The position numbers and the translations under genes were made by a program. From a virus (Duplodnaviria; Caudoviricetes): a stretch of 61,254 bases of DNA. Below, piece by piece: positions 5,057 to 45,364 of this stretch (position 1 is its first letter; the number at the start of each line of letters is the position of its first letter). The stretch covers positions 1 through 61,254 of the IMG/VR virus record IMGVR_UViG_3300023440_000007; one strand, 5' to 3'. The notes beneath the pieces are model-generated. The model was given only the letters and a program-made list of their open reading frames with translations. It was not told the DNA's origin and ran no database searches.

Positions 5057-5386
5057 TCAATCCCCAGAACTCTTCCCCTTATCATCCTTTTTCTGTTGTT
5101 GTCGAACTTCACCAATGACCCAGAACGATGACCAGTGACACGTGAATCTGTTGAATGCGACACAGTGATAGGCTTTATAGCCGTCTTTTGCGACATATTC
5201 TTTCCAAAACCTTATCTCATTGACTTTCTTGAACAAATCTTGTTTAATTTCAACATCTTCTACATATCTGAATTTATACGGTTCAAGCCAGATCCAATAC
5301 TCTCCTATCTTCACTGGAATCACAGCGTATCTATGTATGTATTCCTGTCTAGTAGACCTCTTCTTTACTTCAGCCTTGAATCTCAT
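5057..5386 (-). CDS. Hypothetical protein
   Basis: 109 aa, overlaps its neighbour in the operon. Confidence 0.65.
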   Translation of the reverse strand: MRFKAEVKKRSTRQEYIHRYAVIPVKIGEYWIWLEPYKFRYVEDVEIKQDLFKKVNEIRFWKEYVAKDGYKAYHCVAFNRFTCHWSSFWVIGEVRQQQKKDDKGKSSGD

Positions 5387-5844: not shown

Positions 5845-6730
5845 TCAGAATATTTCCATAAAGGATTTTATGAACTCTACTGCGACCTGCGGCACGATCG
5901 CGTTCCCATAGGCGCGCAGTCGTCCCACTCGGTTGGGTATCCCATGAGCCAGCGGGAATGAGCCGGGTTCAATACGTCTCGCTTTTCCGTCTCTGCACCA
6001 TACGAGTTCGTACTCGTCCCAGAAACCAGAGTTACTTGCATACTTAGGGGTTTCCCTCTTCTTTGTTTCCAGCGTCTCTGATTGAATTCGTCCGATGCCT
6101 TCTCGCTTTTGTAGTCTCTTGCCGTTGGCGTCGCCCAACCGCTCAGATCTATTAAATGAACTATGTCTTCTACTGACCATTGTCTCTTCTTTTTGCTTAG
6201 ATCCCTCTTCCTGCCTGTTTCTGTAGCGCAGGGAGTCGGCCACCCACCAAAGCCTTTGTCGGATGTGCGGCGCGCCGACGCTCGCAGCGCAGATATCTGC
6301 GGTCCCGACGGCATATCCCATCTTTTCCAAGTCAGAGCGTACTCTAGAGCCATACCCTTCCATCCTTCGAAGCAACCTGCTCTCCAAACACCGTTGGAGG
6401 TTTGCACTCAAGTATGATCTGTTTCCATACCGGCCATAGATGCCTTGGGTCTTTCTCAGCTTGTCGCTTCCCTGCGGCCGAGAACGGCTGACAAGGACAT
6501 GATCCTGTCCATACTTTCTTTCCTTCAGGCCATCCAGCAATTTCAAGCGCATAGGCCCATCCTCCTATCCCAGCAAAGAAGTGGCATTGAACATAATCAT
6601 CAAGAGCTCCAACATCTATGTCTTCTATACTCCTATTGTCTATATATCCTTCTTGTATGAGCCCTTCCTTCATCAAATTCTCAAGCCATCTACACACATA
6701 CGGATCATTGTCATTGTAATACGCAGCCAT
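5845..6730 (-). pseudogene. C5-cytosine DNA methyltransferase (two-polypeptide, overlapping-frame type) broken by a 2-nt frameshift at ~6347
   Basis: Motif I FFAGIGG, IV SCPCQPFS and VI EQV in 6344..6730; VIII HIRQRLW and [11 protein letters not shown] in 5845..6552; motif IX-like [13 protein letters not shown] in overlapping frame 5877..6407. Confidence 0.8.
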
Positions 6731-6876
6731 TGTTCAATGTCTAATCCCAATGATTACTCATTGCGTACATATTAGCCATAAATTCTCAGACTTGAGGAAA
6801 TATCTTATAGAAGAGTCTAGCACTTGAGCAATTGTATATGGAGTAAACAGTATAGGCTGGAGTCTCAGGTATATAG

Positions 6877-7002
6877 TCTCAGATCCAAGGATTCAATTCT
6901 CAAGCCTAATCTCAGATCCAAAATTTGTGTGATGGAATTTTTGTATTCTTAGTATGTGGAGTTCAATGAGTAGAGTTCTTGGTGTCAAGATCTCAGATCC
7001 AA
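6877..7002 (+). repeat. Three direct copies of TCTCAGATCCAA
   Basis: Copies at 6877, 6910 and 6991, just before the compositional switch at 7030. Confidence 0.8.
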
Positions 7003-7232
7003 AAATTTCATGAGGGGATTTTTGGGTGACCCAGGGTGTGCCAGTGCGCGCAATGCGCGCATAACCCGCCCCCCGTACCACCTATAGGCGCATAGGCCAT
7101 TGCTGCGCCTACAAGCCGCGTACACGCGCACTAGGCATTGTGCAGTACCTAGTACCGCACCAGGCCACAACGCGCACCACGCGCGCTTGTAGGGGCGTTG
7201 TGGCCATACCTAGCAGGCATGGTACAGGCACA

Positions 7233-7265
7233 ACAAAACCCCCGCGCCTACATGGTGCGGGGGCT
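7233..7265 (-). terminator. Intrinsic terminator of the 7362-7793 gene
   Basis: AAAA-CCCCCGCGCC-TACAT-GGTGCGGGGG hairpin, U-tract on the minus strand. Confidence 0.7.
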
Positions 7266-7361
7266 TGGTTTGGGTTTGGCCCGCTTACTTATGCGGGCCG
7301 GTTTGCCTTACCACTAGGCGCGCACGCCACCTAGTGGCAAGGGGCGCGCAGCATGCTAGCG

Positions 7362-7793
7362 TTACTTGTTGTAACGCTTAGCAAGCGCAGCATACACCGC
7401 GCGCGCCGCCGCTATAGTAGCGGCCAAGCTGGGCGCGGGCATACCGGGCTTGCACGCAGGCGCGTGCTTGGCCACCAGTTTAGTGGCCGCAGCAACATGC
7501 TGCGGGGCCACAAACACGGCATGGCCATGCTTGTGGTACCAGCTAAACTGGTGCCGCACGCCTGCGGCACGCCAGGCACCCTGCATAGTGGCCATAGTAG
7601 CACCGCTATGCTGCGCCAACAAACGCCCCTTTAACTGGGCGCCTGCGGCACGGTAAGGGTACCCCGGGCAAGCGCACACAACACAGTGTGCGCCCGCCTT
7701 GGGCGCTTGGGCGCTTGGCACGCCAGGCCAGGCCGCCGCAGCGGCCATAGTGGCGTAAAAAGCGCCAGGCGTGGTAGGTGCCTGCATGGGCAC
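7362..7793 (-). CDS. Early-island protein with no Asp or Glu (143 aa, Ala-rich, basic)
   Basis: GCAAGGGGG RBS shared with the neighbouring cassettes, own terminator downstream, TAA stop; no D or E in the translation. Confidence 0.7.
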   Translation of the reverse strand: MPMQAPTTPGAFYATMAAAAAWPGVPSAQAPKAGAHCVVCACPGYPYRAAGAQLKGRLLAQHSGATMATMQGAWRAAGVRHQFSWYHKHGHAVFVAPQHVAAATKLVAKHAPACKPGMPAPSLAATIAAARAVYAALAKRYNK

Positions 7794-7970
7794 AACCCCC
7801 TTGCCAATTAGTGCGCGCCGCCCCGCACCAGGCCTGGCCGCCCCGCGCGGCCAGTAAGTACACTACCACAACTACGCGCGCGTAGGCGCGCAATGTTTGC
7901 ATACCAGCCATGCAACAAACGCATACCACCTGCGGGTGTAACACACGAAAACGCAATACAACCCACAGTT

Positions 7971-8083
7971 GCACAACCACAGGTTGTGCGCCACACAACC
8001 AAAACACGTGCATACTTGCATAGGTTTGCAAGTATGCAAATGCGTCTCTCACAACTTGCGTATGTGCATAGGTTTGCAAGTAA
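7971..8083. repeat. Cluster of inverted and direct repeats
   Basis: GCACAACC-ACA-GGTTGTGC; TGCATACTTGCA-TAGGTT-TGCAAGTATGCA; GCATAGGTTTGCAAGTA twice. Confidence 0.7.
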
Positions 8084-8431
8084 GCAAGCGTGCAAGTGGG
8101 CGCAGACGCGCCGTTGACCCGACGCTTGTGTGACCGCTGGATGATTTGGACCTAGTGTGAACACTGGATGACTGAGCGCTTGTGAACTCGCTGGACGGTT
8201 CTCTCTTCTACGCTGAAGATGCCGTGAGTGAAGAGTTCCTCCTCTTCATCATCAAAGAAGATGAAGAGACATGAAGAACTCGTCTTCATCTTCTTTGATG
8301 AAGAACTCACGCACTGGAGTTAGGGTCAAATTTTTTGACAATGAACTTGTGATTCCGCTGGATGATTTGGATCAATATATATGACTAAGAGCTTGTGACT
8401 CTGCTGGATCATCTTCTTTGATACTGTACGG

Positions 8432-8464
8432 CAAAAGGGTAGCGGACTGACTGCCCGCTACCCC
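8432..8464 (-). terminator. Intrinsic terminator
   Basis: CAAAA-GGGTAGCGG...CCGCTACCC. Confidence 0.75.
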
Positions 8465-8470
8465 TGCGGC

Positions 8471-8770
8471 TTAGGAGTCCAGCGCCGTAACCTGGTAAGT
8501 CACAGGCGGCTGAGCGTACTGCCTAACCTGTTCGAGCGTGAGCTCCTTGCCACGCAAGTTGGGCGGCAGGTTAAGCGGAATCTCCGTAACCTTGGTGGCA
8601 AGCGCTGCCAAGTGCAGCGGGAGGACGCCAATAACGTGCTTACCGGCGATCTCCCTGGCAGGATCCGTCACGTGCATAATGCACGCAACGGTGCCCTGGT
8701 CGTCAATAAGCCCCAGCTCCTTAATGTACGAGAGCAGGGCCGGATGGCGTGTAACGATGACCTTTTCCAT
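8471..8770 (-). CDS. Csx16-like (Cas_VVA1548 family) protein; candidate anti-type III CRISPR ring nuclease
   Basis: VTRHPA...VIGVLPLHLAA...LNLPPNLRGKELT matches the Csx16 pattern SRHPGA...VIGTLPVHLAA...LDLP..LRG.ELS; no cas operon in the window. Confidence 0.75.
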   Translation of the reverse strand: MEKVIVTRHPALLSYIKELGLIDDQGTVACIMHVTDPAREIAGKHVIGVLPLHLAALATKVTEIPLNLPPNLRGKELTLEQVRQYAQPPVTYQVTALDS

Positions 8771-8778
8771 CTTTGTTA

Positions 8779-8849
8779 CCCCTTGCTAGTTGCTAGGCGG
8801 TATTGCCTAGTGTTTGCAGCGTAGTAGGGCAGACTGTCAAACGCAAATC
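8779..8849 (-). promoter_or_regulatory. Early cassette promoter, 5' hairpin and RBS
   Basis: GAT-TTGCGT-17 nt (GAcagTC)-TACGCT; hairpin CTAGGC/GCCTAG; CTAGCAAGGGG. Confidence 0.85.
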
Positions 8850-9116
8850 CAAAGTGCATCAGTCGAAAAGAAGATGCATCTGAGGAGGCATCATCAAACA
8901 GGAAGACGTGTCTGAGGAGGCATCATCATCTTTGAAAATGAGATCAGAGAAGCTGACTTGGGTCAAATTTTTTGATAGGACGCTTGTGAAATCGCTGGAT
9001 CAATTCGATTGACTGGGTCAATATATATGACTGAGGACTAGTGTGAGCGCTGGATCATCTTCACGGATGCTGGCGGGCAGCAGTAAGGGGGCCAGGATCC
9101 TGGCCCCCTTAGTGGC

Positions 9117-9365
9117 TTAAGCCGTAAAGCCGGTTTCGATCCCGCCCCCGTACTTACGGCAAAAAGCCACGATCCGCAGCTGCCGCTTGGGCATAACGGC
9201 AACCGCGCGGTTACCGAAGACCGTGTGGTTGTGGTAGGCCCACACGGCGTCGACGATCTGCTGCGGCTTAAAGCCAAGCAGCAGGCCGCGAACGAACGAT
9301 GACAGCGGCAGGGTAACGCCCTGCCAGCTGATCCAAGTACCATGCCTGGTAATTTCGATCTTCAT
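9117..9365 (-). CDS. Early cassette hypothetical protein
   Basis: 82 aa; shared promoter/RBS; terminator hairpin ~9086-9110. Confidence 0.8.
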   Translation of the reverse strand: MKIEITRHGTWISWQGVTLPLSSFVRGLLLGFKPQQIVDAVWAYHNHTVFGNRAVAVMPKRQLRIVAFCRKYGGGIETGFTA

Positions 9366-9373
9366 AGCATTTA

Positions 9374-9448
9374 CCCCTTGCTAGTTTTGGGCAGCACCAT
9401 TGCTGCCCATGTTGCCAGCATGGCAGGGTGGATTTTCCATTGCAAATC
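9374..9448 (-). promoter_or_regulatory. Early cassette promoter, 5' hairpin and RBS
   Basis: GAT-TTGCAA-17 nt (GAaaaTC)-CATGCT; CTAGCAAGGGG. Confidence 0.85.
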
Positions 9449-9776
9449 CTTTATGTATCCGTCAACAAAGAAGACAGCGCCTCAGACGCATCATAAGGAA
9501 GGAAGAAGTTAGAGTTGCATTCATCTTCTATGATGAAGATAACTCGAATAGGAGGCTGAATCATCTTTGAAGATGACATCATGCGAATTGAACAGACTCA
9601 AAATATCTGACTGTGAACTAATGATTCTATTGGATGATTTCGGTCAAATTGTATGAGAGAAGGCTAGTATGACTGCTGGATGATTTGGATCAACACATAT
9701 GAACTAGAGCTTATCCATTCGCTGGATGGTTTCCTCAAAAAGTGTTGGGGCCTACCTGGCCCCATAGTCAAGCCAA

Positions 9777-10325
9777 CTACTTGTTGGCGTAAATCGGCAA
9801 CTGCACGTTGCCGGGTCGTCTGTATTTGTACTGCGTTACGGCAGCCAGCATCCTGTAGGCGCAAGCCGTAACCTTAAGCGGGTCAGCGGCGGCAAGGCGG
9901 GCCGGTCCAACCAGGGCCTTGGCCAGCTCAATATGCTGCCGCTTAACCCAAATGGCGGCGGTCAAAGCAAGGCCGTCAATGCAAACGGCCACGTCGCCAA
10001 ACGGCTTGGCCCAATCAGGGGCCTGTCGTTCCGGGTTATTGTCTCCCCAAAACAGCGTAAGGCCGTCGTCCACGCTGGCAACATGCTGCAAAGCCGTGCT
10101 GTACAGCTTGCGCATGTCATCGTAGGGCAGGTCAAATGCCCCAAGCGCGTGGTCAATAACCTGCGTGGGCAGGTCGTAGGCATTGCCATACACCCACACA
10201 GGGTACAGGTCTTCCTGGCGGGCAATAATGGCAAAATCGCCAAACACGCCGCCGTAGCCGTCGTCGTCCCCGTTGGGCACGTACGCGGCCAAGTCATCGT
10301 ACAAGCTGGTTGTGTTGTTGGTCAT
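9777..10325 (-). CDS. Early cassette hypothetical protein
   Basis: 182 aa; shared promoter/RBS; terminator ~9737-9765. Confidence 0.85.
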   Translation of the reverse strand: MTNNTTSLYDDLAAYVPNGDDDGYGGVFGDFAIIARQEDLYPVWVYGNAYDLPTQVIDHALGAFDLPYDDMRKLYSTALQHVASVDDGLTLFWGDNNPERQAPDWAKPFGDVAVCIDGLALTAAIWVKRQHIELAKALVGPARLAAADPLKVTACAYRMLAAVTQYKYRRPGNVQLPIYANK

Positions 10326-10332
10326 CGCTAAA

Positions 10333-10402
10333 CCCCTTGCTAGTGCTGTGGCCCCATTGCCACAGTACCCACACTAATAGGGCTGATAATCAAACACAAA
10401 TC
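10333..10402 (-). promoter_or_regulatory. Early cassette promoter, 5' hairpin and RBS
   Basis: GAT-TTGTGT-17 nt (GAttaTC)-TAGTGT; CTAGCAAGGGG. Confidence 0.85.
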
Positions 10403-10686
10403 TAAAATGCATCTATCCCATTGGAAGATAACACGAAAAGGGCGTTGAATCTTCTTTGAAGAAGATGCCTCTATGCGTACCTCATCATCTTTGATGGGGA
10501 TGCTTATTCACACTTCATCTTCTTTGATGAAGATTTGGCGTCTAGTTTGTCTTGTTATAAGAGGATGAGCTTGTATGACCGCTGGATGATTTGGATCAAT
10601 ATATATGATAGGAAGCTTGTGATTCCGCTGGATGATTTGGATAGCCAAAAAGAAGGGGCAGGCTTTGATGCCTACCCCAAACAAGC

Positions 10687-11109
10687 CTAGATATACGGCC
10701 GACCATCCCCGCCTGGGCCTACCATGCCGTACAGCCCATTAGCGACGAAGGCGCAAGCCTTAGCCAACGACTTTTTGTTAACGGTGGAGCAGAACACCCT
10801 GCTGCCTACCTGGATAGTGCTGGAACACACCCTTACGCCACACAGATCTACATACCGTATGGCAAAACTAAAGTGCGCATGCGGAACTACGGCGAAGTAG
10901 CCCACATTGACCAACACCTTAAACCGCTGTATGACGTTCTCCACCTGCTGATACTCACCATTTACCAAATGCGTACCAGCAGTGAAGCGTTCCAGATCCG
11001 CCAGCTTTAGCCAGCCAACCCGACTGAGGACCTGGCACAAAACCGGCAGTTTGCTGGGATCGTCGCTGTGAGTAACCACGCACAGCGCATACAGGTTACG
11101 ATTTTCCAT
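10687..11109 (-). CDS. Early cassette hypothetical protein
   Basis: 140 aa; shared promoter/RBS; terminator ~10647-10678. Confidence 0.8.
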   Translation of the reverse strand: MENRNLYALCVVTHSDDPSKLPVLCQVLSRVGWLKLADLERFTAGTHLVNGEYQQVENVIQRFKVLVNVGYFAVVPHAHFSFAIRYVDLCGVRVCSSTIQVGSRVFCSTVNKKSLAKACAFVANGLYGMVGPGGDGRPYI

Positions 11110-11118
11110 AGTTTTTTA

Positions 11119-11187
11119 CCCCTTGCTAGTGTTATGGCACCATTGCCATAGTAACAGCCTAGTAGGGCTGAATATCAATAGCAAATC
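11119..11187 (-). promoter_or_regulatory. Early cassette promoter, 5' hairpin and RBS
   Basis: GAT-TTGCTA-17 nt (GAtatTC)-TAGGCT; CTAGCAAGGGG. Confidence 0.85.
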
Positions 11188-11347
11188 ATAAATACTTCAG
11201 TCAATTAAGACTCAAAGGCCGCTTCGAGTTATCTTCATCGTAGACGAAGAACAATACTCTACCGCAATCATCCACGTAGAAGAGACATACAGTCAAAAAG
11301 AAGGGGCGAGTTTTGATACTCACCCCAAGTTGCCTAGCAGGGGGAAG

Positions 11348-11458
11348 CTAGTACAGGAACTTGGCGGTAGCGATAATGCCCACGCCGAACACACCGCCAA
11401 GAATCAGAGACCCTATGGCTGCCAGGCCGAGGATAATTGCGGCTTCGAGCTTATGCAT
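11348..11458 (-). CDS. 36-aa membrane peptide (below the ORF-track cutoff)
   Basis: MHKLEAAIILGLAAIGSLILGGVFGVGIIATAKFLY; start overlaps the stop of 11451..11828; terminator ~11295-11326. Confidence 0.65.
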   Translation of the reverse strand: MHKLEAAIILGLAAIGSLILGGVFGVGIIATAKFLY

Positions 11459-11828
11459 GGTTTAACGCCTCCTTAGCGCGCTTGATGGTATCGCCGTACA
11501 GGGAGGCCAGCGCATTGTACAGCAGGAGCGACATGGCATAGTGCGGTTCCATGCCGATGCTGTGCGCTTGGCTGTGGACAGCCGCTGGCCACGAGCTGCT
11601 AAGCAGGTCGTCGACGCGCTGCACATCCCTGGGGTGAATGAACACAACCTTGCCTTCGTACAAGGCCGTGGTGCTGTCGAGCTCGTGGTCCCACACAGGC
11701 CCAAGGATTACACGGTGGGTGCATCCCGCAGCCTTGAGGTCGTCCACGGTTGCCTGCCCATCAGCCGCCAGGCGGTATGCCCGATAGACGGGCTGGGCAA
11801 GCTTCAGCATATCCTGAATGTCTTGCAT
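11451..11828 (-). CDS. Early cassette hypothetical protein
   Basis: 125 aa; shared promoter/RBS. Confidence 0.8.
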   Translation of the reverse strand: MQDIQDMLKLAQPVYRAYRLAADGQATVDDLKAAGCTHRVILGPVWDHELDSTTALYEGKVVFIHPRDVQRVDDLLSSSWPAAVHSQAHSIGMEPHYAMSLLLYNALASLYGDTIKRAKEALNHA

Positions 11829-11836
11829 TGCTTAAT

Positions 11837-11906
11837 CCCCTTTGCTAGTTGCATGGCTTGCTTGCCATGTTGCCAGCATGGCAAAGGTGATTATCAAACG
11901 CAAATC
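11837..11906 (-). promoter_or_regulatory. Early cassette promoter, 5' hairpin and RBS
   Basis: GAT-TTGCGT-17 nt (GAtaaTC)-CATGCT; CTAGCAAAGGGG. Confidence 0.85.
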
Positions 11907-12080
11907 TAAAGTGCGTCAGTCGCAGCGGAAGAGAAACCCTCGTGGCTGGTCGTCTTTGATGAGGATAACTCGAATAGCGGGTTGAATCATCTTTGAAGAG
12001 AAGCTGCGAGGCGGCATCGTCTTCTTGGATACCTCGAAACAAAAAGAACCCCGGCCTACCTGGCCGGGGATTTTGCTTGG

Positions 12081-12545
12081 CTACGTGCCAAGACGCCAGC
12101 CCAACAGCGCGCCGTAGACGGCGGCGGCAAGCTGGGCCGACGGAACCGTACCCTGCAGCGCACCAGCCAAGGACTGGGCGGCGCTGCGGTCCTGCTTGCG
12201 CGGGAACACGGCGCAGTAGTACATCAGTTCGTTAACCGCCGGGCCGTAGTCCTGCTCGAAGTTGGGCAGCAGGTTTTCCATTTCCCGCATGGCCAACACA
12301 AAGTCGTCTTTGTTGTTGGCCATAAAGCCGCGCAGGTTTGCCCAAGTATCCTGCACGCTTCCCGTGCTGCACTCAGCAAGCGCAGCAACAAAAGCGGCCA
12401 GGTCATCCGGCAACGGCTTAGCGGAAAACACCCAAACCGGGACCGGACCAACCTGCTGCATCAACTTAGGCCAGCCCGGCCAATCAGGGTGCATGTTGTC
12501 GTTACGCACCCTAAGGATTTCGCTGTAGTACTGGTAAGCATCCAT
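12081..12545 (-). CDS. Early cassette hypothetical protein
   Basis: 154 aa; shared promoter/RBS; terminator ~12041-12070. Confidence 0.85.
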   Translation of the reverse strand: MDAYQYYSEILRVRNDNMHPDWPGWPKLMQQVGPVPVWVFSAKPLPDDLAAFVAALAECSTGSVQDTWANLRGFMANNKDDFVLAMREMENLLPNFEQDYGPAVNELMYYCAVFPRKQDRSAAQSLAGALQGTVPSAQLAAAVYGALLGWRLGT

Positions 12546-12553
12546 TGGTTAAT

Positions 12554-12624
12554 CCCCTTGCTAGTTGCTAAGCACCATTGCTTAGTGTGCCCATGCTAGT
12601 AAGGGGGACTTTCAAAGGCAAATC
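12554..12624 (-). promoter_or_regulatory. Early cassette promoter, 5' hairpin and RBS
   Basis: GAT-TTGCCT-17 nt (GAaagTC)-TAGCAT; CTAGCAAGGGG. Confidence 0.85.
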
Positions 12625-13052
12625 CAAAGTGCATCAGTCAGGCCGGACTCAAAACAGCTCTGCTGGCTCATCTTTTGCGAGTCACAGCGCCATTCGAGTT
12701 ATCATCATCTATGATGAGGAACAGTACTCTGCTGCAATCATCAGTCCTGATTCATTAGCCTATTCGAGTTATCTTCATCGTAGACGAAGACAAGTGAGTG
12801 CAAATCTTCTTCGCTGAAGAGGATAACTCGAATAGCGGTTTGAATCATCTTTGATGAGGCAATCATCTTCATGATGATGAAATGCCTGGCAAGCTCATCT
12901 TATATGAGATAGAGCTTATGAATCCGCTGGATGATTTGGTCCTAGCGTGTGAACTAGAGCTTATGGATTTGCTGGATCAATTGGATAGACATATACCGTC
13001 AAAAAGATGGGCGGGGCATTGAGCCCCGCCCGATGGCCGCCTGGCAAGGGGT

Positions 13053-13601
13053 TCAGGCAGCCGCGTCGCTGGCCTGCTCGTTAACGAGCACCGGCACCGG
13101 CGGTGTGGACTCGGCCTTGGGCTTGGCCTCCTCCTTGGGCTTCTCCTTGGGCGTAATGGCGTCGACCAGGGCCTCATAAAAGCCCATGAACGCCTGCTTC
13201 CTAGCCGCCTCGAAGTTGGCCCGGAAGCTGGTAGCCTCGCCCTGGAACTTCTTGCGCCCCACCTTCAGCGCCCCGTCACTGCCGATGGACACGGCGTAAC
13301 GCTTGGCAAACTGAAGCGCCTTGCGCGTGTGGGTGGGATGGACCAGCGCCACGAAGCAGTTCTTGTAGTGCCAGGACAAGCCCCACCTGTCGCGCGGGAC
13401 GCTGCGCTTGCTGAACGCCTGGTTCAGCTCCCCCACGGTCTTGCCGGGGTTGTGGGTAATCACGTCCCACTTGACCGGGGCCGTGTCCCCACGGGGATTG
13501 TAACCCTCTCCCACCAGGGGGATGGCCACCGCGCAGCCCGCGTTGAGCATGCCACGGTAGCTGTTCTTCAACTCGCTGGCCTTGTAATAGGTATCACGCA
13601 T
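13053..13601 (-). CDS. Early cassette protein; possible DNA-binding domain related to the C-terminus of 42681..43400
   Basis: YNPRGDTA..KW....GKTVGEL....LSW....FVAL; AAGGAGG RBS; terminator ~13001-13031. Confidence 0.8.
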   Translation of the reverse strand: MRDTYYKASELKNSYRGMLNAGCAVAIPLVGEGYNPRGDTAPVKWDVITHNPGKTVGELNQAFSKRSVPRDRWGLSWHYKNCFVALVHPTHTRKALQFAKRYAVSIGSDGALKVGRKKFQGEATSFRANFEAARKQAFMGFYEALVDAITPKEKPKEEAKPKAESTPPVPVLVNEQASDAAA

Positions 13602-13657
13602 TGTTTCCTCCTTTGCTGCTAGATGCGCGGCACTAACTGCACCGCCCTATGGTTTGC

Positions 13658-13689
13658 AGCATGGCAGGGTTGATTGTCAGTTGCAAATC
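13658..13689 (-). promoter_or_regulatory. Early cassette promoter
   Basis: GAT-TTGCAA-17 nt (GAcaaTC)-CATGCT. Confidence 0.85.
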
Positions 13690-14327
13690 TAAAATGGCTG
13701 CATTTTTGTGAGGTGGGACGGCTCATCAACCTTGAGTCAAACCGCTATTCGAGTTATCTTCATCGTAGAGGAAGAACACAGCCCTATATATTATATAAAG
13801 TGCGCCAATTCGTCAAAGCTGAGTCATTGGCCTATTCGAGTTATCCTCATCAAAGAGGACTCAAAGCCCTATTCGAGTTATCTTCTTCAATGAAGAACGT
13901 ACTCGTTTTGTTTCGGATCATCTTTTTTGATGATACCGCATCCTCATCATGATGAGGATCTATGGGAATGACACCCGACATTACGCTAGAGTATGAGCTT
14001 GCATATGAGCTGGATTGATTCAAAATATCTTCATTTTGAAGATGAACATGACGGTTTTTTGTCATTTTTCGGATTCACAAACTTCATCCAGCTAAGTCAT
14101 TGTAAAACAACAAAACACGATCGCGTGTCTCAAGCGGGGCAGACGTCGTTTTTGGACCGTGTTTCATCTTCATCCATGACGCTTTTGAATCATAAAATCT
14201 TCCTCATGAAGAAGACATTCCACACTTGAACCGGAATCCATGGAATGATGCCAGAGGTTTTGTATGAAAGTGAGCTAATATGACCGCTGGATGAGCCTGT
14301 ACACTCCCATACTTTAGACCCAAAAAA

Positions 14328-14365
14328 GACTTGCATGTGAAATTCCACCATGTAAGGGTTATAAT
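14328..14365 (+). promoter_or_regulatory. Divergent promoter of the same class
   Basis: GAC-TTGCAT-17 nt (GAaatTC)-AAGGGT, immediately followed by TATAAT. Confidence 0.65.
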
Positions 14366-14367
14366 GC

Positions 14368-14735
14368 TGGCGCGGCATATGCGTCAGGGCCTAAAAGTCA
14401 ATGGTTCCATAGGAGTAACCATTGGCAGGACGACAGGGGTTATGCCCGGCCATAGAGAGCCTAGGGGGCCAGACGGGAGCGGTACTTGCCTTTGAGCAAG
14501 CAGCGCACGTCGCAGGGTAGCGGAAGCCTACAGCGAGGCGCACAACGTGGTCTGCGCCGGTAGAGCTGGATATGACCGCTAAGGAAAATTCCCTGGGTGG
14601 AATTCCCAGGGCCAGGGGCTGAGTAGCTGATATAGTGAAACCCCTGCGAGGACTGCGGAATACTCTGGTTTTACTCGGTATGCAGCAAGCCGGACGGTGT
14701 GATGAGCTGTAGGGATACAACCGCCCTGAAGGTCA
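14368..14735 (+). ncRNA. Candidate structured RNA (~360 nt)
   Basis: GC-rich, no credible + ORF; closing TCAGGGC/GCCCTGA; hairpins CAATGGTT/AACCATTG, CCCTGGG/CCCAGGG, GCGCA/TGCGC. Confidence 0.45.
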
Positions 14736-14854
14736 GAAAAACCTCCTCTTACCATGCAACTTGACAGGGGGTACTGAGTGCTGGCGTGATGCGGTACTGT
14801 AAGTATCCCCTTGCTTTATCCATTTATGGACCAACCAGTAGAGGACGTGATGAA

Positions 14855-15196
14855 ATGACCAGTACATGGAGAACAATGCAAGGACTGAACACATACGGTG
14901 GTGGGTACAGCCTGAGAAAGAAACACAGGGCTGATCGCTGGTTCAAAGGGAAAGCCGGTGATGAAATAACCGCCAAGATGTGCCGTAAAAAGAGCAAAAC
15001 CTACAAAATAAGGAGTGGCCCAAGTCCTTGGACGCCAGGGGAAACTCTGGAACACTACCCTGAAATACATCCTTGGCATGTGAAAAACGCTGAGGCGCTA
15101 ATAGCGAAAATCAACCTATACTGGGAAAGCAAAGGGCTGCCGACCAAAGTAAACATCACCAATGAAATGAGAAAGAAATACGGACCCAAACAATAA
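14855..15196 (+). CDS. Basic hypothetical protein
   Basis: ORF 14786..15196; ATG at 14855 after GAGG is the likelier start. Confidence 0.65.
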   Translation: MTSTWRTMQGLNTYGGGYSLRKKHRADRWFKGKAGDEITAKMCRKKSKTYKIRSGPSPWTPGETLEHYPEIHPWHVKNAEALIAKINLYWESKGLPTKVNITNEMRKKYGPKQ

Positions 15197-26816: not shown

Positions 26817-27818
26817 ATGAAGCATGGTTGGAAGTATTCCCCATACCGGATTGTGCGTGAAGGAACACGTCACTTCGGCGTGGGAACATGCGAAGAGTGT
26901 GGATTTGAAGTGAAGATCGGACTCTCAAAGAACTTGCCCAGAAATGTAATGATGGAAAAGTTCGCCCAGAAGGGTCTGTTTCCTTCACACAATATCCCCA
27001 CCAAGAAAGCGAAGTTCAGAACTGGGGAGTATCCCCCATTCATCTGCAAATCTTGTGAAGACAAGAGGAAGCAGAAGAACGTCGCTATTCAGAAACCTCA
27101 AAAGGAGGAGACAATGACTACTTTCCCGCAAGGAAAGGACCTGGTTGTGTACATGTCCATCACGTCTCCTGCTGCTCGCAGTGTGTACCACAGGGTCAAC
27201 TTCGCCCTTGATAGAGACGAGTGGGAGAAGATGGGAAGTCCGAAATTCGCCAGGATCCTGATAGGAGAAAACGGACATACCATTAAGGATACCTCCAAGC
27301 TGATCATTCAGTTCACTTCGGAGGGAAACGGAAAGTCCGTTCCTGGGTATAGGACGCTGGCGATCGGAGACTACGATTACGGCAAAACCCTTAATCGTAA
27401 AGTCAGGTTCACGACGTCAGCAAGATACCTTCCCATAAAGGACGTGACCTGCTTATGCGGGGCGACTCCCATCAAGGGGACGCTTTCCTACTCCATGGGA
27501 AACAAGTACCGACAGTTCGTTTCCAATGACAACTTCGTCGGAATCAAGAACTCTCTCATGCAGAGGAAGCGTGGAGTTCCCAAAACCGGACTCAAGCCCG
27601 TATCCGCTGTCGGTAAGTTCGTACAAGTAGAACAGACCAGAAAGAAGAACTATATGAGTCAGACTGATCACTCATACAGTCTGGAAGACGGTAGAGTGAT
27701 CTGTGACATGCTGGAAGGCTGGGTCAAATGGATGCGCGGCAGAGGATTCCAAGTATCCCTGAGCGTTGATCCAAACAACCCTGACAAGATCAACATCAAG
27801 GCATACATGGACCTGTAA
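26817..27818 (+). CDS. Hypothetical protein with N-terminal Zn-ribbon-like CxxC pairs
   Basis: CEEC...CKSC; internal AAGGAGG-ATG at ~27114 may give a second start. Confidence 0.8.
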   Translation: MKHGWKYSPYRIVREGTRHFGVGTCEECGFEVKIGLSKNLPRNVMMEKFAQKGLFPSHNIPTKKAKFRTGEYPPFICKSCEDKRKQKNVAIQKPQKEETMTTFPQGKDLVVYMSITSPAARSVYHRVNFALDRDEWEKMGSPKFARILIGENGHTIKDTSKLIIQFTSEGNGKSVPGYRTLAIGDYDYGKTLNRKVRFTTSARYLPIKDVTCLCGATPIKGTLSYSMGNKYRQFVSNDNFVGIKNSLMQRKRGVPKTGLKPVSAVGKFVQVEQTRKKNYMSQTDHSYSLEDGRVICDMLEGWVKWMRGRGFQVSLSVDPNNPDKINIKAYMDL

Positions 27819-27860: not shown

Positions 27861-27990
27861 CGTGGAGTAAGCAACCCCCTTGCTAGCTCTGCTTTGGAGG
27901 AGATGGAGGGCAACCCTGGGGATCATCCAGTCCAACCTGTCCGGTTGATCCTTGTCATCACTACTCCATCTCCTCCAGCTTTTTCATTTA
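27861..27990 (+). ncRNA. Candidate sRNA with a C-rich loop complementary to the early-cassette RBS
   Basis: 5' hairpin AGCAA-CCCCC-TTGCT; 3' stem GGAGGAGATGGAG/CTCCATCTCCTCC followed by a U-tract; promoter upstream. Confidence 0.65.
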
Positions 27991-40690: not shown

Positions 40691-41245
40691 ATGTCAGTTA
40701 TGTCAGACACATGGATAAAAGACATGGTTATTAAGCACGATATGATCACGCCATTCATTGACCATCTTGTTAAAGATGGCTGTATATCGTATGGATTATC
40801 ATCGTATGGATATGATGTAAGAGTATCAAATCACTTCAAAATCTTCACTGACGTTGATTCTGTAATCGTCGATCCAAAAAAGTTTTCCGATAAGAGTTTC
40901 GTGAATAGGACATTGGAGGAGTGTATAATTCCTCCAAACAGCTTCGTCTTAGCGACTACGGTAGAATGGTTCAAGATACCGAGAGATGTGATGGCATTCT
41001 GCGTGGGCAAGTCTACATACGCAAGAATAGGCATCTCTGTCGGCTGTACCCCATTAGAGCCCGAATGGTCAGGACAGATAACTCTGGAATTGGCTAATAC
41101 CACACCGATTCCAGCAAAGGTCTATGCCAATGAGGGGATCGCACAAGTTATCTTCTTTAAGGCTGACAAGGAATGTTCTGTGTCCTATAAGGATCGTAAA
41201 GGGAAGTACATGAACCAGATAGGAGTAACTCCAGCAAAGATATAG
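40691..41245 (+). CDS. dcd: dCTP deaminase
   Basis: [43 protein letters not shown]. Confidence 0.95.
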
Positions 41246-41249
41246 GACG

Positions 41250-41531
41250 ATGCTGAACCCAAAATCAAAGACCGTAGTTGTTCATGTTAAGGACAATCAT
41301 CCAGATGCCGTCTACATAGGCAGAGGCAGCAAATGGGGAAATCCTTTCAGGATAGGAAAGGATGGAACTAGGATGGAAGTCATAAGAAAGTATGAATTAT
41401 GGATAAGAACTCAGCCTCACCTCCTGTCAAGCGTGTGTGAATTGAAGGGGAAGAAACTGGCCTGTTTCTGCGCTCCAAAGCCTTGTCACGGGGACGTTCT
41501 GATAAAGCTCATAGAGGAGCAGGGAATATGA
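41250..41531 (+). CDS. DUF4326 family protein
   Basis: YIGRGSKWGNPF...LKGK.LACFCAP..CHGDVL. Confidence 0.9.
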   Translation: MLNPKSKTVVVHVKDNHPDAVYIGRGSKWGNPFRIGKDGTRMEVIRKYELWIRTQPHLLSSVCELKGKKLACFCAPKPCHGDVLIKLIEEQGI

Positions 41532-41603
41532 AATAGATTCAAAAATGATTTGCTTATCAAGGCCGGTTATGTAATGGTAATGGCCTTCTTAGAGGGGAGA
41601 ACG

Positions 41604-42158
41604 ATGATGCAAATCGAATGGAATGGAGCTATAGAGAACTGGACTAAGAAGTTTATAAGCAAGAACCTATGGAGATTCGAGGGATCATATGAGTTTGATG
41701 ACCTAATGCAGGACTGCTTTATAAAATTCATGTTCTGCAGAGACAAATACAAAGATACTGCTGAAAACATGGCTCATTTCATGAGCCTATACAAAAGAGC
41801 GGTAGTAAATCATTTTCATGACAAGGCTAATGAGACTACCAATCATAGACATTCTGATATAGAGGAAGTGCAAAACTATGCGGCTTCCTCTATATGTTTT
41901 AACAATCTAGGATTCTTGTTGGTTCTTATAAAAGAAGCGCCCAAAGAGGTACAAACAGTTATAGAGACAATGATATTGGAAGGGAACAGCGGTAAGCTGA
42001 GGAGACCATTCAGGAAAACGTATGGGAAGCGTTCCAAGATCTCTGGGAAGATCGTGCGCATAAGAGAGACAACCGACGAGTTCCTGTCTAGGGTCATGGA
42101 CATCCCAGAGCTTGAAGAGAATTTAAGAGAGAGGGTAAGAGAGTATCTATTGAAATGA
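41604..42158 (+). CDS. Sigma-factor-like protein (region 2)
   Basis: YEFDDLMQDCFIKF...F...YKRAVVNHFHD resembles sigma region 2. Confidence 0.55.
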   Translation: MMQIEWNGAIENWTKKFISKNLWRFEGSYEFDDLMQDCFIKFMFCRDKYKDTAENMAHFMSLYKRAVVNHFHDKANETTNHRHSDIEEVQNYAASSICFNNLGFLLVLIKEAPKEVQTVIETMILEGNSGKLRRPFRKTYGKRSKISGKIVRIRETTDEFLSRVMDIPELEENLRERVREYLLK

Positions 42159-42697
42159 GACATAGCCTAGCCTTTGTCAGCAAAGTCGAGCGCGATATCA
42201 CTCGTGCTACTGGGATAAGAAGGGCTCCTTCATATAAAAACTTGTTCAGATGGAGAGTGGCCCTGCTAGAAGCTGTCGCTGAATTGCCTGAGAAAGAGTG
42301 GCGGCTTCTCTCTGAAGACACGAAGAAATGGTATGTTGAAGCATGTCAAGCTCTTAAGAATAAGCAGAAGCTTCCACCGTTTCCAGATGAAGATGAAATA
42401 GAGATCAAAAGAAGACAAGCATATGGAAGCGCATATGAAAAGAAGCACAAGAACTTTAAGATAAACTACAAGGGAGCAGGATATAGGGCAAAGGAGATAA
42501 TGATAAAAGAGGGTATGTATTTTCCTCTTATGAAACTTCATAAGAGGCTTCAAGAAGAGGGATACATATACTCTCCTAGGACTCTGCAGATCGTTATTGC
42601 GGAGTTTAGATCAGCGGTTAGAGTCCTACAAGATCATGGACTTCTTAAGTGTGAACTGAATTGGGACAGAAGGAAAAAACATGAAGAGCAAGATTGA
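42155..42697 (+). CDS. Hypothetical protein; N-terminal motif paralogous to 42681..43400
   Basis: AVAELPEKEWRLLSEDTKKW vs AAASLSDDDWEQLSSPAQEW. Confidence 0.75.
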   Translation: MRHSLAFVSKVERDITRATGIRRAPSYKNLFRWRVALLEAVAELPEKEWRLLSEDTKKWYVEACQALKNKQKLPPFPDEDEIEIKRRQAYGSAYEKKHKNFKINYKGAGYRAKEIMIKEGMYFPLMKLHKRLQEEGYIYSPRTLQIVIAEFRSAVRVLQDHGLLKCELNWDRRKKHEEQD

Positions 42698-43400
42698 AGA
42701 GGAGCTTATGAAGGCTACCGCTACCTCTCCTGATGAAAATGAAGACAGGGAAGCGTGGTTGGAACGTCTCACTGTCGCTGCTGCTTCTCTTTCTGACGAT
42801 GACTGGGAACAGCTGTCTTCCCCTGCTCAGGAGTGGGTAAACATCAACGTAGACATCCTCACAGACTATGAAAACAATGATAAGCATCTGAATGACTTCA
42901 ATGACATTGAAGCTGAAGATGGAGAGCTCAGTGAGGAAGTAGAACAGAACGAAGAGGACACAGAGGAGAAAGACATGGTGGAGTTCAATAGGTTCGAAGA
43001 AGACGCGTTCAAGGGTAAAAAGCGTAAGAAGACTAAGAAAGAGAATGAAACGGCAGTAGAGGAAGCCAAGGTGGAGGCTGAGGAAGCTGCCGAGGAAGAG
43101 GCTGAGGAAGAGCCCTCTGTCGAGGAAATCGTTGAGGAGGTTGAGACTTCCAAGAAGATCAAGAAGAAAAAGGTGAAGTACACTAACGTTATCGAGATGG
43201 ATAACGTTATCAAGGTCAATGTCAAGGAAAATCCCAAGAGACAGGGAACCAAAGCGTACAAGAAGTTTGCGCTTATCAAAGACGGCATGACCGTGAAGGA
43301 GTTCTGTGAACTTGCTGATAAGCATGAAGAGTTCGGCAAGAAGTGGGGAATCAGAGAGCTCAGGTGGTGTCTGGCTCGTGGCTACATCGAGCTCAAATAG
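42681..43400 (+). CDS. Acidic protein with a C-terminal putative DNA-binding domain
   Basis: Glu-rich linker; NPKRQGTKAYKKF....GMTVKEF....LRWCLARGYIEL. Confidence 0.8.
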   Translation: MKSKIEEELMKATATSPDENEDREAWLERLTVAAASLSDDDWEQLSSPAQEWVNINVDILTDYENNDKHLNDFNDIEAEDGELSEEVEQNEEDTEEKDMVEFNRFEEDAFKGKKRKKTKKENETAVEEAKVEAEEAAEEEAEEEPSVEEIVEEVETSKKIKKKKVKYTNVIEMDNVIKVNVKENPKRQGTKAYKKFALIKDGMTVKEFCELADKHEEFGKKWGIRELRWCLARGYIELK

Positions 43401-43465
43401 GTCTGTATGAAGTAGGGTCTCCGTGCAGCTATCAACTGCACGGAGACTTTTTATAGGAGACACTG

Positions 43466-43633
43466 ATGGAAAACAGGAATCCTATGGAGTGGCTTGAATC
43501 CATTCCTTCGTTTTGGTTAGGCAGAGCAGAGGCTAGGCTTCAGATCGCTGAAAAAGCAGTAGGAGATGAAAAGCTTAGGCACTTGAGCGTCGCTGCTGAG
43601 TACGAAAGAATCGCCAAACAGAGAAGCACATGA
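43466..43633 (+). CDS. 55-aa hypothetical protein
   Basis: AGGAG RBS; MENRNPMEWLESIPSFWLGRAEARL... Confidence 0.55.
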   Translation: MENRNPMEWLESIPSFWLGRAEARLQIAEKAVGDEKLRHLSVAAEYERIAKQRST

Positions 43634-43634
43634 T

Positions 43635-44549
43635 ATGGGAGATTTAGGGGAACTGTGGTATGGCTTGGATGCGAACCAAGTCGTAAACTTCTTCTCCTTT
43701 ATAAGAGAAAGAGAGAACATACGCTTAAGAAGGCTTCGTAGACAGCCTTATCCATGGACAGAAGATCCAATCCTCTGTTCTTACAGGTTTACGAATGTAA
43801 AGAGGAAGCATGACAAGACTACGCAATGGGCTATAAAGAACTGGTATGAGCCAAATAAAGAAAATGAGAATTTAGGAGCGCAGTTCTTCAATTGCGCTGT
43901 GTTCAGATACTTTGGAACTATAGAGTTCGCAAAAAGATATGGCTGGAGCGAGAGCTTCTATCCCCAAAAAGCCATAAAAGTTGTAGAACAGCTCAGAGCA
44001 GAAGGAAAGCCTGCTTTCACAAGCGCTTATGTAATAACGAACTCTGGGATAAAGGCTCCAAAAGAGGAAGTTGTAGCCAACAACTTCCTAATGCCCCTCT
44101 TTGTCAAGAGGGAGGAAGTTGTCGAGATAGCCCAAGATACCAAGTCTTGGAAAGCCGTGTTTGAATACCTAAAAGAGTTTGAAGGATTTGGAGGTACTGG
44201 CTTCATGGCCAAAGAAGTACTCCAAGACACTATGTTCACTGCCGTATTGCAAGACTGTATAGATGCTGATACATGGTCCCCATGCGGACCAGGAGCTACT
44301 CGCGGCATAGAAATTCTTTTAGGAGAGCACGACTTTAATGCAGATGCGAAAAAGAGGATCAAGGGACTCACAGAATCTAAGAAGCTTTCGATAATGAAGT
44401 ATCTTAGGATGCTGTCCCTACACGGATTTTGGCCTAAGAGATGGGAGCCTCTCACTGTCCATGATATTCAATTTTCATTGTGTGAGTTTGCGAAGTATAT
44501 GCGGATTAAGAATGGGTGTAGAGCAAAGAGAAAATACCATCCAACATGA
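43635..44549 (+). CDS. aGPT-Pplase1 / 5-hmdU DNA kinase helical-domain family protein (thymidine hypermodification)
   Basis: F..ERE.IR..R....PWTEDPIL..YRFTNV.R..D; GFMAKEV..D; GPGA.RG; IQFSLCEF.KY. Confidence 0.85.
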   Translation: MGDLGELWYGLDANQVVNFFSFIRERENIRLRRLRRQPYPWTEDPILCSYRFTNVKRKHDKTTQWAIKNWYEPNKENENLGAQFFNCAVFRYFGTIEFAKRYGWSESFYPQKAIKVVEQLRAEGKPAFTSAYVITNSGIKAPKEEVVANNFLMPLFVKREEVVEIAQDTKSWKAVFEYLKEFEGFGGTGFMAKEVLQDTMFTAVLQDCIDADTWSPCGPGATRGIEILLGEHDFNADAKKRIKGLTESKKLSIMKYLRMLSLHGFWPKRWEPLTVHDIQFSLCEFAKYMRIKNGCRAKRKYHPT

Positions 44550-45364
44550 AGTTCTTCAAGCCTCTGAAAGAAGACTTCTGCCTATTTATTCCAACGTGCA
44601 GAAGACCCAATAGACAGATCACAGCAACAAGGCTGCTACAGGCTAGCATACCATTTAATGTCGTCGTACAAGGCCGTGAGGCGACCGCATACGACTACTT
44701 TAGGGAGCAGGGAGTGCCTGTCATCGTACTGCCGTGGTGGGTATGTGATCTCTCTGATACATGGCAGTGGCTATTAGAAAATACCCCGACAAGATACTTC
44801 ATGTGTATGGATGACGACTTGTACCTCTTCAGGAGGGAGCCAGACAGTGTAAAGCTCCACATAGCTTCAGATGAAGACATAAAACAGATGTTTGATACTC
44901 TTTATGGTTGGATGAAAGAAGGAGTAGTCCATGTCGGAGTATCTATGAGAGAAGGCAATAATAGGTATCCAGACCCATATTACGAAAACATGAGGATGTG
45001 CAGGGCGACTGGATATGATTCTGAAGTGGTTAGAAGCCTTGGAGTGAAGTTCAATAGAGTTATTTGTAGAGCAGACTTTCACATGACTCTAGAATTATTG
45101 AAAAGGGGTTATAAAAACAGAGTATTATTTGAATTTGCTACTAATCAACCTGGCAGCAATACTGATGGTGGATGCAGCAGCTACAGATCTGACGAAGTGC
45201 TAGAAGAAAATGCCATACTCTTAGCGAAGATGCATCATCCGTATGTTAAAGTCGTAGAAAAAGTAACCAAAACTGCTTGGAATAGCAGGCCGAGAAAGGA
45301 CGTAATCGTCTATTGGAAAAAAGCCTTCAGAGATTCTCAGAAGAATCAAAATGATAGTCATTAA
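44546..45364 (+). CDS. GT-A glycosyltransferase, TET/JBP-associated (GREB1-like) type
   Basis: IPT..R, MDDD, DFHMTLELL..GY.N, GSNTDGGCSSYR; sits inside the modification cluster. Confidence 0.75.
   Translation: MKFFKPLKEDFCLFIPTCRRPNRQITATRLLQASIPFNVVVQGREATAYDYFREQGVPVIVLPWWVCDLSDTWQWLLENTPTRYFMCMDDDLYLFRREPDSVKLHIASDEDIKQMFDTLYGWMKEGVVHVGVSMREGNNRYPDPYYENMRMCRATGYDSEVVRSLGVKFNRVICRADFHMTLELLKRGYKNRVLFEFATNQPGSNTDGGCSSYRSDEVLEENAILLAKMHHPYVKVVEKVTKTAWNSRPRKDVIVYWKKAFRDSQKNQNDSH

Follow-up and report, generated by a model that had tools for sequence, protein, structure and literature searches.

Why would a phage place one promoter seven times in tandem and once more divergently, and clear the DNA around all of them of a single dinucleotide except at a few fixed places? 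The question is raised by the IMG/VR virus record IMGVR_UViG_3300023440_000007 (Duplodnaviria; Caudoviricetes), where these promoters lie between positions 8,432 and 14,365. The window analyzed is the entire record (61,254 bp), with an estimated completeness of ~61%. The dinucleotide is GA, or TC when read on the opposite strand (GA/TC from here on). An earlier note on this DNA had described a GA-N3-TC element in the spacer of all eight promoters and proposed that it is an operator or a modification-dependent switch, and that the melted and initially transcribed region must stay unmodified. Its observation was confirmed and extended, and its interpretation is partly supported: the GA/TC purge, together with a thymidine-hypermodification gene set, suggests a phage that keeps its own modification clear of the sites at which host RNA polymerase has to initiate.

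Promoter family and GA/TC purge

All eight sites proposed earlier are present, with the GA-N3-TC variants that had been listed (variable nucleotides in lower case; c1 to c7 are the minus-strand copies and P8 is the divergent one):

8817-8849, minus strand: c1 promoter motif; -35 TTGCGT at 8846-8841, GAcagTC at 8838-8832, -10 TACGCT at 8823-8818
9416-9448, minus strand: c2 promoter motif; -35 TTGCAA at 9445-9440, GAaaaTC at 9437-9431, -10 CATGCT
10370-10402, minus strand: c3 promoter motif; -35 TTGTGT at 10399-10394, GAttaTC at 10391-10385, -10 TAGTGT
11155-11187, minus strand: c4 promoter motif; -35 TTGCTA at 11184-11179, GAtatTC at 11176-11170, -10 TAGGCT
11874-11906, minus strand: c5 promoter motif; -35 TTGCGT at 11903-11898, GAtaaTC at 11895-11889, -10 CATGCT
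12592-12624, minus strand: c6 promoter motif; -35 TTGCCT at 12621-12616, GAaagTC at 12613-12607, -10 TAGCAT
13657-13689, minus strand: c7 promoter motif; -35 TTGCAA at 13686-13681, GAcaaTC at 13678-13672, -10 CATGCT
14328-14365, plus strand: P8, diverged eighth promoter; GACTTGC with the -35 at 14331-14336, GAaatTC at 14339-14345, TATAAT at 14360-14365

The seven minus-strand copies form an ungapped 33-nt alignment (GATTTGC-nnT-TGA-nnn-TC-nn-CCCT-nC-YA-nGCTG), and therefore the 17-nt spacing reported before is exact in all seven. With up to three mismatches, the strict consensus matched six of the seven copies, against 0.00 matches expected from 100 shuffles. A weight matrix made from the seven copies scored them at 38.0-46.2 bits (by construction), P8 at 17.9 and the top background site at 8.8. 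Because of this difference, we consider P8 a diverged family member and not noise; it faces away from the other seven, toward the replication arm. The loose pattern used earlier also matches a ninth place (5236-5208, minus strand) inside an open reading frame (ORF) at 5057-5386, which looks like chance.

GA/TC makes up 15.5% of the dinucleotide steps of the window, counting both strands, and only ten GA/TC-free runs of at least 50 nt were found in its 61 kb: the seven zones from promoter to ATG and three pieces of one block at 7029-8105. In 30 first-order Markov simulations, the mean was 0.2 such runs and the longest run reached 52 nt. The longest GA/TC-free run exceeds its expectation 16.9 times, versus 0.81-1.69 times for the nine other strand-symmetric dinucleotide classes. 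The promoter zones are 50-69 nt long, and each is bounded exactly by the TC of GA-N3-TC.

Since the seven copies are paralogues, we collapsed identical aligned columns into unique steps before counting, and numbered positions by setting the G of GATTTGC to -38. From the TC at -22/-21 to the ribosome-binding site (RBS), GA/TC occurs once in 170 unique steps (binomial P = 1e-11 at p = 0.155). As the earlier note had it, six of the seven minus-strand cassettes contain no GA/TC from the -10 to the RBS; the sole exception is a TC in c7 (13623-13622). Upstream, between -62 and -21 and leaving aside six fixed positions, GA/TC accounts for 2 of 119 unique steps (P = 5e-7), and further out the rate is normal (32/206 at -100 to -63; 53/317 at -158 to -101). 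The purged zone spans from about -62 to the start codon and extends beyond the region that is melted or transcribed first. The purge that the earlier note ascribed to that region is real, its extent was underestimated, and the modification behind it is a deduction.

The steps retained within -62 to -21 are placed regularly. In c2 to c6, they occur only at -61 (TC), -53 (GA), -49 (GA), -38 (GA), -27 (GA) and -22 (TC). In c1, -60 replaces -61 and there is one additional step at -55; c7 retains -60, -38, -27 and -22. GA-N3-TC is the -27/-22 pair, that is, two of about six retained steps. Because the fixed positions were defined on the seven copies themselves, P8 is a useful check: it presents GA/TC at -61, -49, -38, -27 and -22, each of the same GA or TC type, and no other from -73 to +18. 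Its flank from -63 to -39 is identical to that of c6 at 9 of 25 positions (~36%, hand count). The spacing of the steps alone (GA, a GA 11 nt on, a TC 5 nt further, none between, and 20 free steps after) retrieved, besides the eight promoters, a single further site: plus-strand position 10690, inside the c4 gene and antisense to it. The steps at -49, -38 and -27 are 11 bp apart and, at 10.5 bp per turn, would therefore lie on nearly one face of the helix.

Cassettes and purged block

Each minus-strand unit has the same order: promoter, perfect hairpin, RBS, one gene (two in c5) and terminal hairpin. The units, all with minus-strand genes, are:

c1: GA/TC-free run 8771-8831 (from the TC at -22/-21 to the ATG), hairpin 8810-8793, RBS 8789-8779; gene 8471-8770, 99 aa, Csx16-like (PF09652); hairpin 8463-8437 followed by TTTT
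c2: GA/TC-free run 9363-9430, hairpin 9409-9388, RBS 9384-9374; gene 9117-9365, 82 aa, no family; hairpin 9108-9087 without a T run
c3: GA/TC-free run 10326-10384, hairpin 10365-10346, RBS 10343-10333; gene 9777-10325, 182 aa; terminator 9764-9746
c4: GA/TC-free run 11106-11169, hairpin 11150-11133, RBS 11129-11119; gene 10687-11109, 140 aa; terminator 10678-10655
c5: GA/TC-free run 11837-11888, hairpin 11869-11852, RBS 11848-11837; genes 11348-11828, 125 aa and an overlapping 36-aa hydrophobic ORF; terminator 11326-11303
c6: GA/TC-free run 12554-12606, hairpin 12585-12568, RBS 12564-12554; gene 12081-12545, 154 aa; terminator 12069-12049
c7: GA/TC-free run 13623-13671, hairpin 13645-13627, RBS AAGGAGG at ~13613-13607; gene 13053-13601, 182 aa, weak paralogue of the block ORF at 7362-7787; terminator 13031-13009

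When tested as self-contained units, all seven present the promoter motif and an RBS, and five a canonical terminator by the scan rule. The previous claim that each cassette ends in its own terminator holds for these five; c1 and c2 end in weaker hairpins.

The 5' hairpins are perfect stems of 6-9 bp at the same place in all seven units, and all stem sequences differ and yet pair (covariation). In c7 the hairpin begins 13 nt past the last T of the putative -10; in the other six units it begins 6-8 nt past it, the position expected of a 5'-terminal RNA hairpin if transcription starts ~7 nt after the -10 hexamer. In bacteria, 5'-terminal stem-loops of the ompA type stabilise mRNAs. The hairpins described here are similar in position and pairing, and most likely stabilise short early mRNAs. 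Unlike the ompA type, the top of the stem and the loop are conserved (GC-AATGGN-GC; loops of 4-6 nt), hinting at a role at the protein or DNA level.

The RBS of the cassettes also lacks GA: it reads CTAGCAAGGGG, of the form CTAGCAA(A)GGGG, except in c7, where AAGGAGG contains one. Early genes use AAGGGG, versus GGAG or GAGG in the bulk genes. A lone CTAGCAAGGGG occurs outside the cassettes (27876-27886, minus strand) with no start codon at the usual distance, and probably belongs to a small hairpin that follows the gene at 26817-27818.

The purge continues, in a weaker form, into the coding sequences. GA/TC observed/expected ratios were 0.47-0.79 in the seven cassette coding regions versus 1.32 in the bulk; for intergenic DNA ahead of the promoters they were 1.24-1.41. 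Taking as synonymously avoidable all steps except those of GAN codons, the nine early ORFs hold 0, 4.9, 9.0, 14.3, 17.0, 17.5, 18.0, 21.7 and 27.0 avoidable GA/TC per 100 codons, and 24 bulk genes 27.9-40.7. The c3 unit, from the promoter TC through the terminator (9726-10385, 660 nt), has no TC on the coding strand and 31 GA steps, 22 of which are Asp or Glu codons.

A further purged stretch is the block next to the cassettes:

7029-8105: purged block, 4 GA/TC steps in 1077 nt versus ~126 expected from base composition; GC 0.62; GA/TC-free pieces 7029-7946, 7948-8044 and 8050-8104
7362-7787, minus strand: block ORF, 141 aa, no GA/TC, protein without Asp or Glu; RBS GGCAAGGGGG
8038-8009, 7987-7958 and 7947-7920 (minus strand, terminator-like) and 7263-7239: hairpins

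The similarity of the block ORF to c7 (25% identity over 71 residues, pairwise E = 2e-5) suggests that it is a genuine gene whose sequence was re-coded under GA/TC pressure. A protein re-coded without Asp or Glu shows how strong that pressure can be. Neither the weight matrix nor the spacing signature located a promoter for it. Upstream of the ORF (7920-8095), the three terminator-like minus-strand hairpins stand in a row together with a 34-nt unit present three times (8006, 8054, 8062); these elements might represent small RNAs, attenuators or a structure resembling an origin.

Regarding gene content, the c1 protein matches the Csx16 family (PF09652) with 65.9 bits and E = 4e-18, in Pfam and PADLOC. 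Members of this family were shown to be cyclic tetra-adenylate (cA4) ring nucleases (PMC12409355). As judged from its family match, c1 may encode a phage ring nuclease that counters type III CRISPR signalling. Neither Pfam nor PHROG assigns a family to eight of the nine early ORFs, PADLOC matches c1 alone, and a PHROG search of 10 proteins of the region returned no match except the methylase described below. The cassette genes are likely anti-defence or takeover genes and would be expressed early in infection.

Proposed DNA modification and transcription initiation

The modification premise of the earlier note gains from the gene content of the plus strand, where PHROG and Pfam matches identify a candidate thymidine-hypermodification gene set within 40691-46412:

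40691-41245, plus strand: dCTP deaminase (phrog_1663, E = 2e-61)
43635-44549, plus strand: 5-hydroxymethyldeoxyuridine (5-hmdU) DNA kinase (PF18723, E = 2.2e-45, 155.7 bits versus a cut-off of 25)
44546-45364, plus strand: glycosyltransferase adjoining the kinase (phrog_842, E = 2e-36; PF20691 just over the cut-off)
45351-46412, plus strand: thymidylate-synthase homologue (PF00303, 78 bits; phrog_5131)

The kinase is ~30% identical to those of YuA/M6-like phages, and the glycosyltransferase matches a TET-associated family. The best solved relative of the synthase homologue is a CMP hydroxymethylase (MilA), and in a printed alignment the phage protein presents Asn where MilA has Asp. From what is known of thymidylate synthases, we take Asn at this position to mean uracil specificity; the homologue may be a dUMP hydroxymethylase. 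No AADT or aGPT-Pplase transferase was found among the 43 ORFs scanned with PHROGs and Pfam in this incomplete record, and there was no match to TET/JBP, TGT/DpdA or HU-like genes in the window. A C5-cytosine methylase-like gene (5845-6735, minus strand) is apparently split over two frames, with FAGIGG and PCQPFS in one and the later conserved part in the other (by eye); it could reflect a frameshift, a broken gene or an assembly error.

Published work provides a precedent for modification limited by context. The base 5-hydroxymethyluracil (hmU) is turned into thymine or a hypermodified base depending on sequence context (PMC8989533), through motifs still not known in 2018 (PMC5889632). In M6, ViI and phiW-14, restriction-resistant sites implicate a TG or TC context, probably set by the kinase (PMC6449724), and a phage T-dioxygenase favours NTC (PMC13229309). 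In our window, TpC (T followed by C) accounts for 27.8% of all T. TG/CA is not avoided, and therefore the context would be TC alone. As for the consequences, on hmU templates phosphorylated by the kinase, transcription by E. coli RNA polymerase was 37% of that on natural DNA and 10% of that on hmU DNA (PMC6457204), and bulky groups in the major groove block transcription, probably at initiation (PMC4838386).

The explanation that we lean towards, if only modestly, is that the T of TpC is hypermodified and that the units which host RNA polymerase reads from injected DNA have been freed of TpC. Virion DNA would carry a bulky 5-hmdU-derived group on the T of TpC (GA on the other strand). After injection, the unmodified host polymerase would have to initiate on modified DNA, where bulky groups hinder initiation, so that selection would have cleared GA/TC from the polymerase contact zone and the leader. 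The eight promoters would have been cleared of TpC on both strands, most strongly from about -62 to the ATG, and the early coding sequences thinned. The seven copies would head tandem, self-contained early units, with P8 as a diverged member facing the replication arm. The retained GA/TC steps would be needed by the promoter, either as bases or as modified bases.

Several points weigh against this explanation. TpC as the modified context is deduced from its avoidance. The hexamers of the seven minus-strand copies match TTGACA/TATAAT at 6-8 of 12 positions (hand count), and a standard sigma70 scan with a threshold of 9/12 lists none of them. Bulk genes hold ~165 GA/TC per kb and yet must be transcribed; therefore the block would not be absolute, and would act on initiation or rate, or be lifted later on. 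The same copies served both to define the fixed positions and to test them, with P8 as an only semi-independent check, and the unique-step counts are not fully independent, as the copies are paralogous. Moreover, searches of viral and metagenome contigs found no relatives with this promoter family: two promoter-plus-RBS patterns matched at 5 and 7 loci, each a lone match attributable to chance. Among the viral contigs, no relative of the c3 protein was found; the kinase has one relative at 34% identity, from a contig whose GA/TC-free runs are no longer than chance. Phage YuA, with the same kinase family, showed no dinucleotide-free outliers in its first 50 kb (largest run ratio 1.32 versus 16.9 here). 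Finally, ~39% of the genome is unseen, and further modification genes may be missing.

The sigma70 assignment deserves a closer look, given that the earlier note considered that TTG-N-17-NANNNT fits host sigma70. The 17-bp spacer, within the 16-18 bp expected, is found in all seven minus-strand copies, and so are A at position 2 and T at position 6 of the -10 (A-11 and T-7). The hexamers themselves are loose (3-4 of 6 matches at both the -35 and the -10), and on these features the assignment is weak. A second -35-like hexamer, TTGAnn (TTGACA in c1), begins 6 nt downstream of TTGCnn and includes the GA of GA-N3-TC. We rejected it as the -35 with a 17-bp spacer, since the resulting -10 hexamers lack A2 or T6 in all seven (by eye). 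Sigma54 and Caulobacter-type consensus sequences were also rejected, as they do not fit these sites (by eye). For P8, the best sigma70 reading is GTGAAA-17-TATAAT (14337-14365, 10/12), 6 nt downstream of the earlier register. With this -35 and a consensus TATAAT, the P8 start may therefore lie 6 nt further downstream.

These loose hexamers leave some room for a reader other than host sigma70, such as a phage sigma factor or polymerase that recognises the 33-nt motif, or an injected polymerase for which the hairpin is an N4-type promoter. The 33 conserved positions despite weak hexamers, the fixed place of the hairpin in all seven units with its conserved top and loop, and the incompleteness of the genome fit such a reader. 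We nevertheless regard it as very unlikely. No single-subunit polymerase was matched in the window, although a control search was equally silent and the genome is incomplete. A candidate phage sigma factor (ORF 41550-42158) was rejected: its Sigma70_r2 match, the only sigma-like one, is sub-threshold (17.2 bits versus a cut-off of 24), and solved structures gave no support. The N4-type promoter has a 5-7-bp stem and a 3-nt loop and serves an injected giant polymerase, whereas the loops here are of 4-6 nt. The conservation of A-11 and T-7, and the start of six of seven hairpins 6-8 nt after the -10, as for a 5'-terminal RNA hairpin, also speak against it. A separate matter is whether the fixed steps, including GA-N3-TC, act as plain sequence (tandem -35-like TTGCnn and TTGAnn, or a factor site) without any modification switch, and this we take as a serious possibility, albeit short of probable. 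The GA at -27 belongs to TTGACA, TTGATA, TTGATT or TTGAAA, the P8 hexamer GTGAAA is the best -35 for its consensus TATAAT, and the window has no HU/TF1-like reader gene. What plain sequence explains less well is that P8 keeps -61 and -49, of the same type, within its diverged flank, which points to the step itself and not to a longer motif. The converse proposal goes further than our preferred explanation: host polymerase could not start at all on TpC-modified DNA, which would account for the eight clean promoters and the clean 1-kb unit, and the retained modified thymines would time early transcription by telling injected DNA, which is fully modified, from new DNA. The steps at -49, -38 and -27, about one helical turn apart, together with -61, -53 and -22, would then serve as the modification-dependent signal. 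We find this proposal, taken as a whole, doubtful.

The same purge could also protect initiation from another modified base, either the G of GA (7-deazaguanine of the DpdA type) or the C of TpC (through a methylase, dioxygenase and glycosyltransferase route). A published phage DpdA has a strict GA motif (PMC10484667), the window holds the C5-methylase-like gene and the glycosyltransferase of a TET-associated family, and about two fifths of the genome lie beyond it. On the other side, TGT/DpdA and TET/JBP are without a match in the window, the methylase frame looks interrupted, and the kinase, the dCTP deaminase and the thymidylate-synthase homologue together favour the hmU route, as does the Asn of the homologue where the CMP hydroxymethylase MilA has Asp. 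Overall, we judge a base other than T to be unlikely. We give little weight, and the least of all, to a cause of another kind: a TC-specific host deaminase, nuclease or restriction system that attacks DNA as it enters, or an RNase with cleavage sites at GA or UC in early mRNA. Phage T5 does avoid a restriction site only in its first-entering DNA, which counts in favour of such a cause, as does the c3 unit, where TC is missing throughout but from the coding strand alone. However, the purge affects both strands, including the presumably untranscribed DNA from -62 to +1, and therefore an RNA-level cause does not explain it. It is also aligned to the promoters with fixed positions retained. Mutational erosion of TC would lower the GC content, and yet the region is GC-rich. 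In c3, the high share of Asp and Glu codons among the remaining GA steps looks as if every removable step had been removed.

Known systems and genome context

SPO1, T4 and T5 are phages with modified DNA that carry arrays of strong early promoters, in SPO1 as part of a host-takeover module. The region described here resembles that module in its many short early units, each with promoter, RBS and terminator, and in a putative replacement of T via the hmU route. Unlike in SPO1, T4 and T5, the modification appears to be context-limited, the promoters are purged of the context, and the hexamers are weak. SPO1 also encodes TF1, an HU-type protein with a preference for hmU DNA and with binding sites at early promoters. 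The operator proposed by the earlier note would resemble such a modification-dependent protein site, and no HU-family gene is found in the window.

With M6/YuA, ViI, phiW-14 and SP10, this phage shares a thymidylate-synthase homologue and a 5-hmdU DNA kinase, and a TG/TC context has been proposed in print for these systems (PMC5889632, PMC8989533, PMC6449724). It differs from these systems in presenting a glycosyltransferase where an amino-acid:DNA transferase is usual, and in avoiding only TC and not TG. In vitro on/off switching with hmU uses the same enzyme family, and the effect has the same direction, with less initiation by bacterial RNA polymerase when T carries a bulky or charged group (PMC6457204; PMC4838386). 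Those templates were fully substituted, whereas the arrangement here would be natural and position-specific. The literature searched, limited in coverage and including PMC10484667, contained no description of a promoter-aligned purge of a modification context.

If our preferred explanation is true, the context of a hypermodification could be read from the genome sequence alone; before, it was deduced indirectly from restriction resistance (PMC6449724, 2019). It would also be the first natural case found of a phage that arranges its promoters around its own DNA modification. Base hypermodification, seen so far as armour against restriction, would be tied to the control of early transcription.

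At the genome level, deposited phages gave no near DNA match to the window, and none of their proteins exceeds 31.5% identity with the DNA polymerase encoded here. Genes lie on the minus strand up to ~14.3 kb, followed by a plus-strand replication arm from ~14.3 to ~56.9 kb that encodes a DnaB-like helicase, primase, PolA, a UvsX-like recombinase, SbcCD and the large terminase subunit. GC content is 0.51-0.54 in the early, cassette-bearing region versus ~0.42 elsewhere. Directly downstream of P8 (14366-14850, plus strand), ~480 nt of GC-rich DNA with no obvious ORF, no Rfam match and a folding z-score of -1.9 are a possible structured leader or non-coding RNA. Two tRNA genes are found at 1586-1979 on the minus strand (Arg-TCT and Leu-TAA). 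They alone reach the gathering score in an Rfam scan of the window, and three sub-threshold matches in 6900-15000 look like chance.

Three repeat families are confined to the intergenic DNA of 8106-14330. The first consists of ~46-nt units (ATCCAGCGG..CAAGCTC..), with 12 of the 19 loose matches in the window located there, all on the minus strand. The second is a ~50-nt element around TATTCGAGTTATC in both orientations (10 of 10 matches in 8106-14330), and the third comprises short palindromes such as TTCATC-N6-GATGAA.

The stretch is present as contigs in two DNA sequencing runs of one study, and the second run differs at 6 positions. This variation is uninformative for the promoters, because none of the 6 differences falls in any promoter, hairpin or RBS. 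Four of them are clustered in one intergenic repeat (11952-11981) upstream of the c5 promoter.

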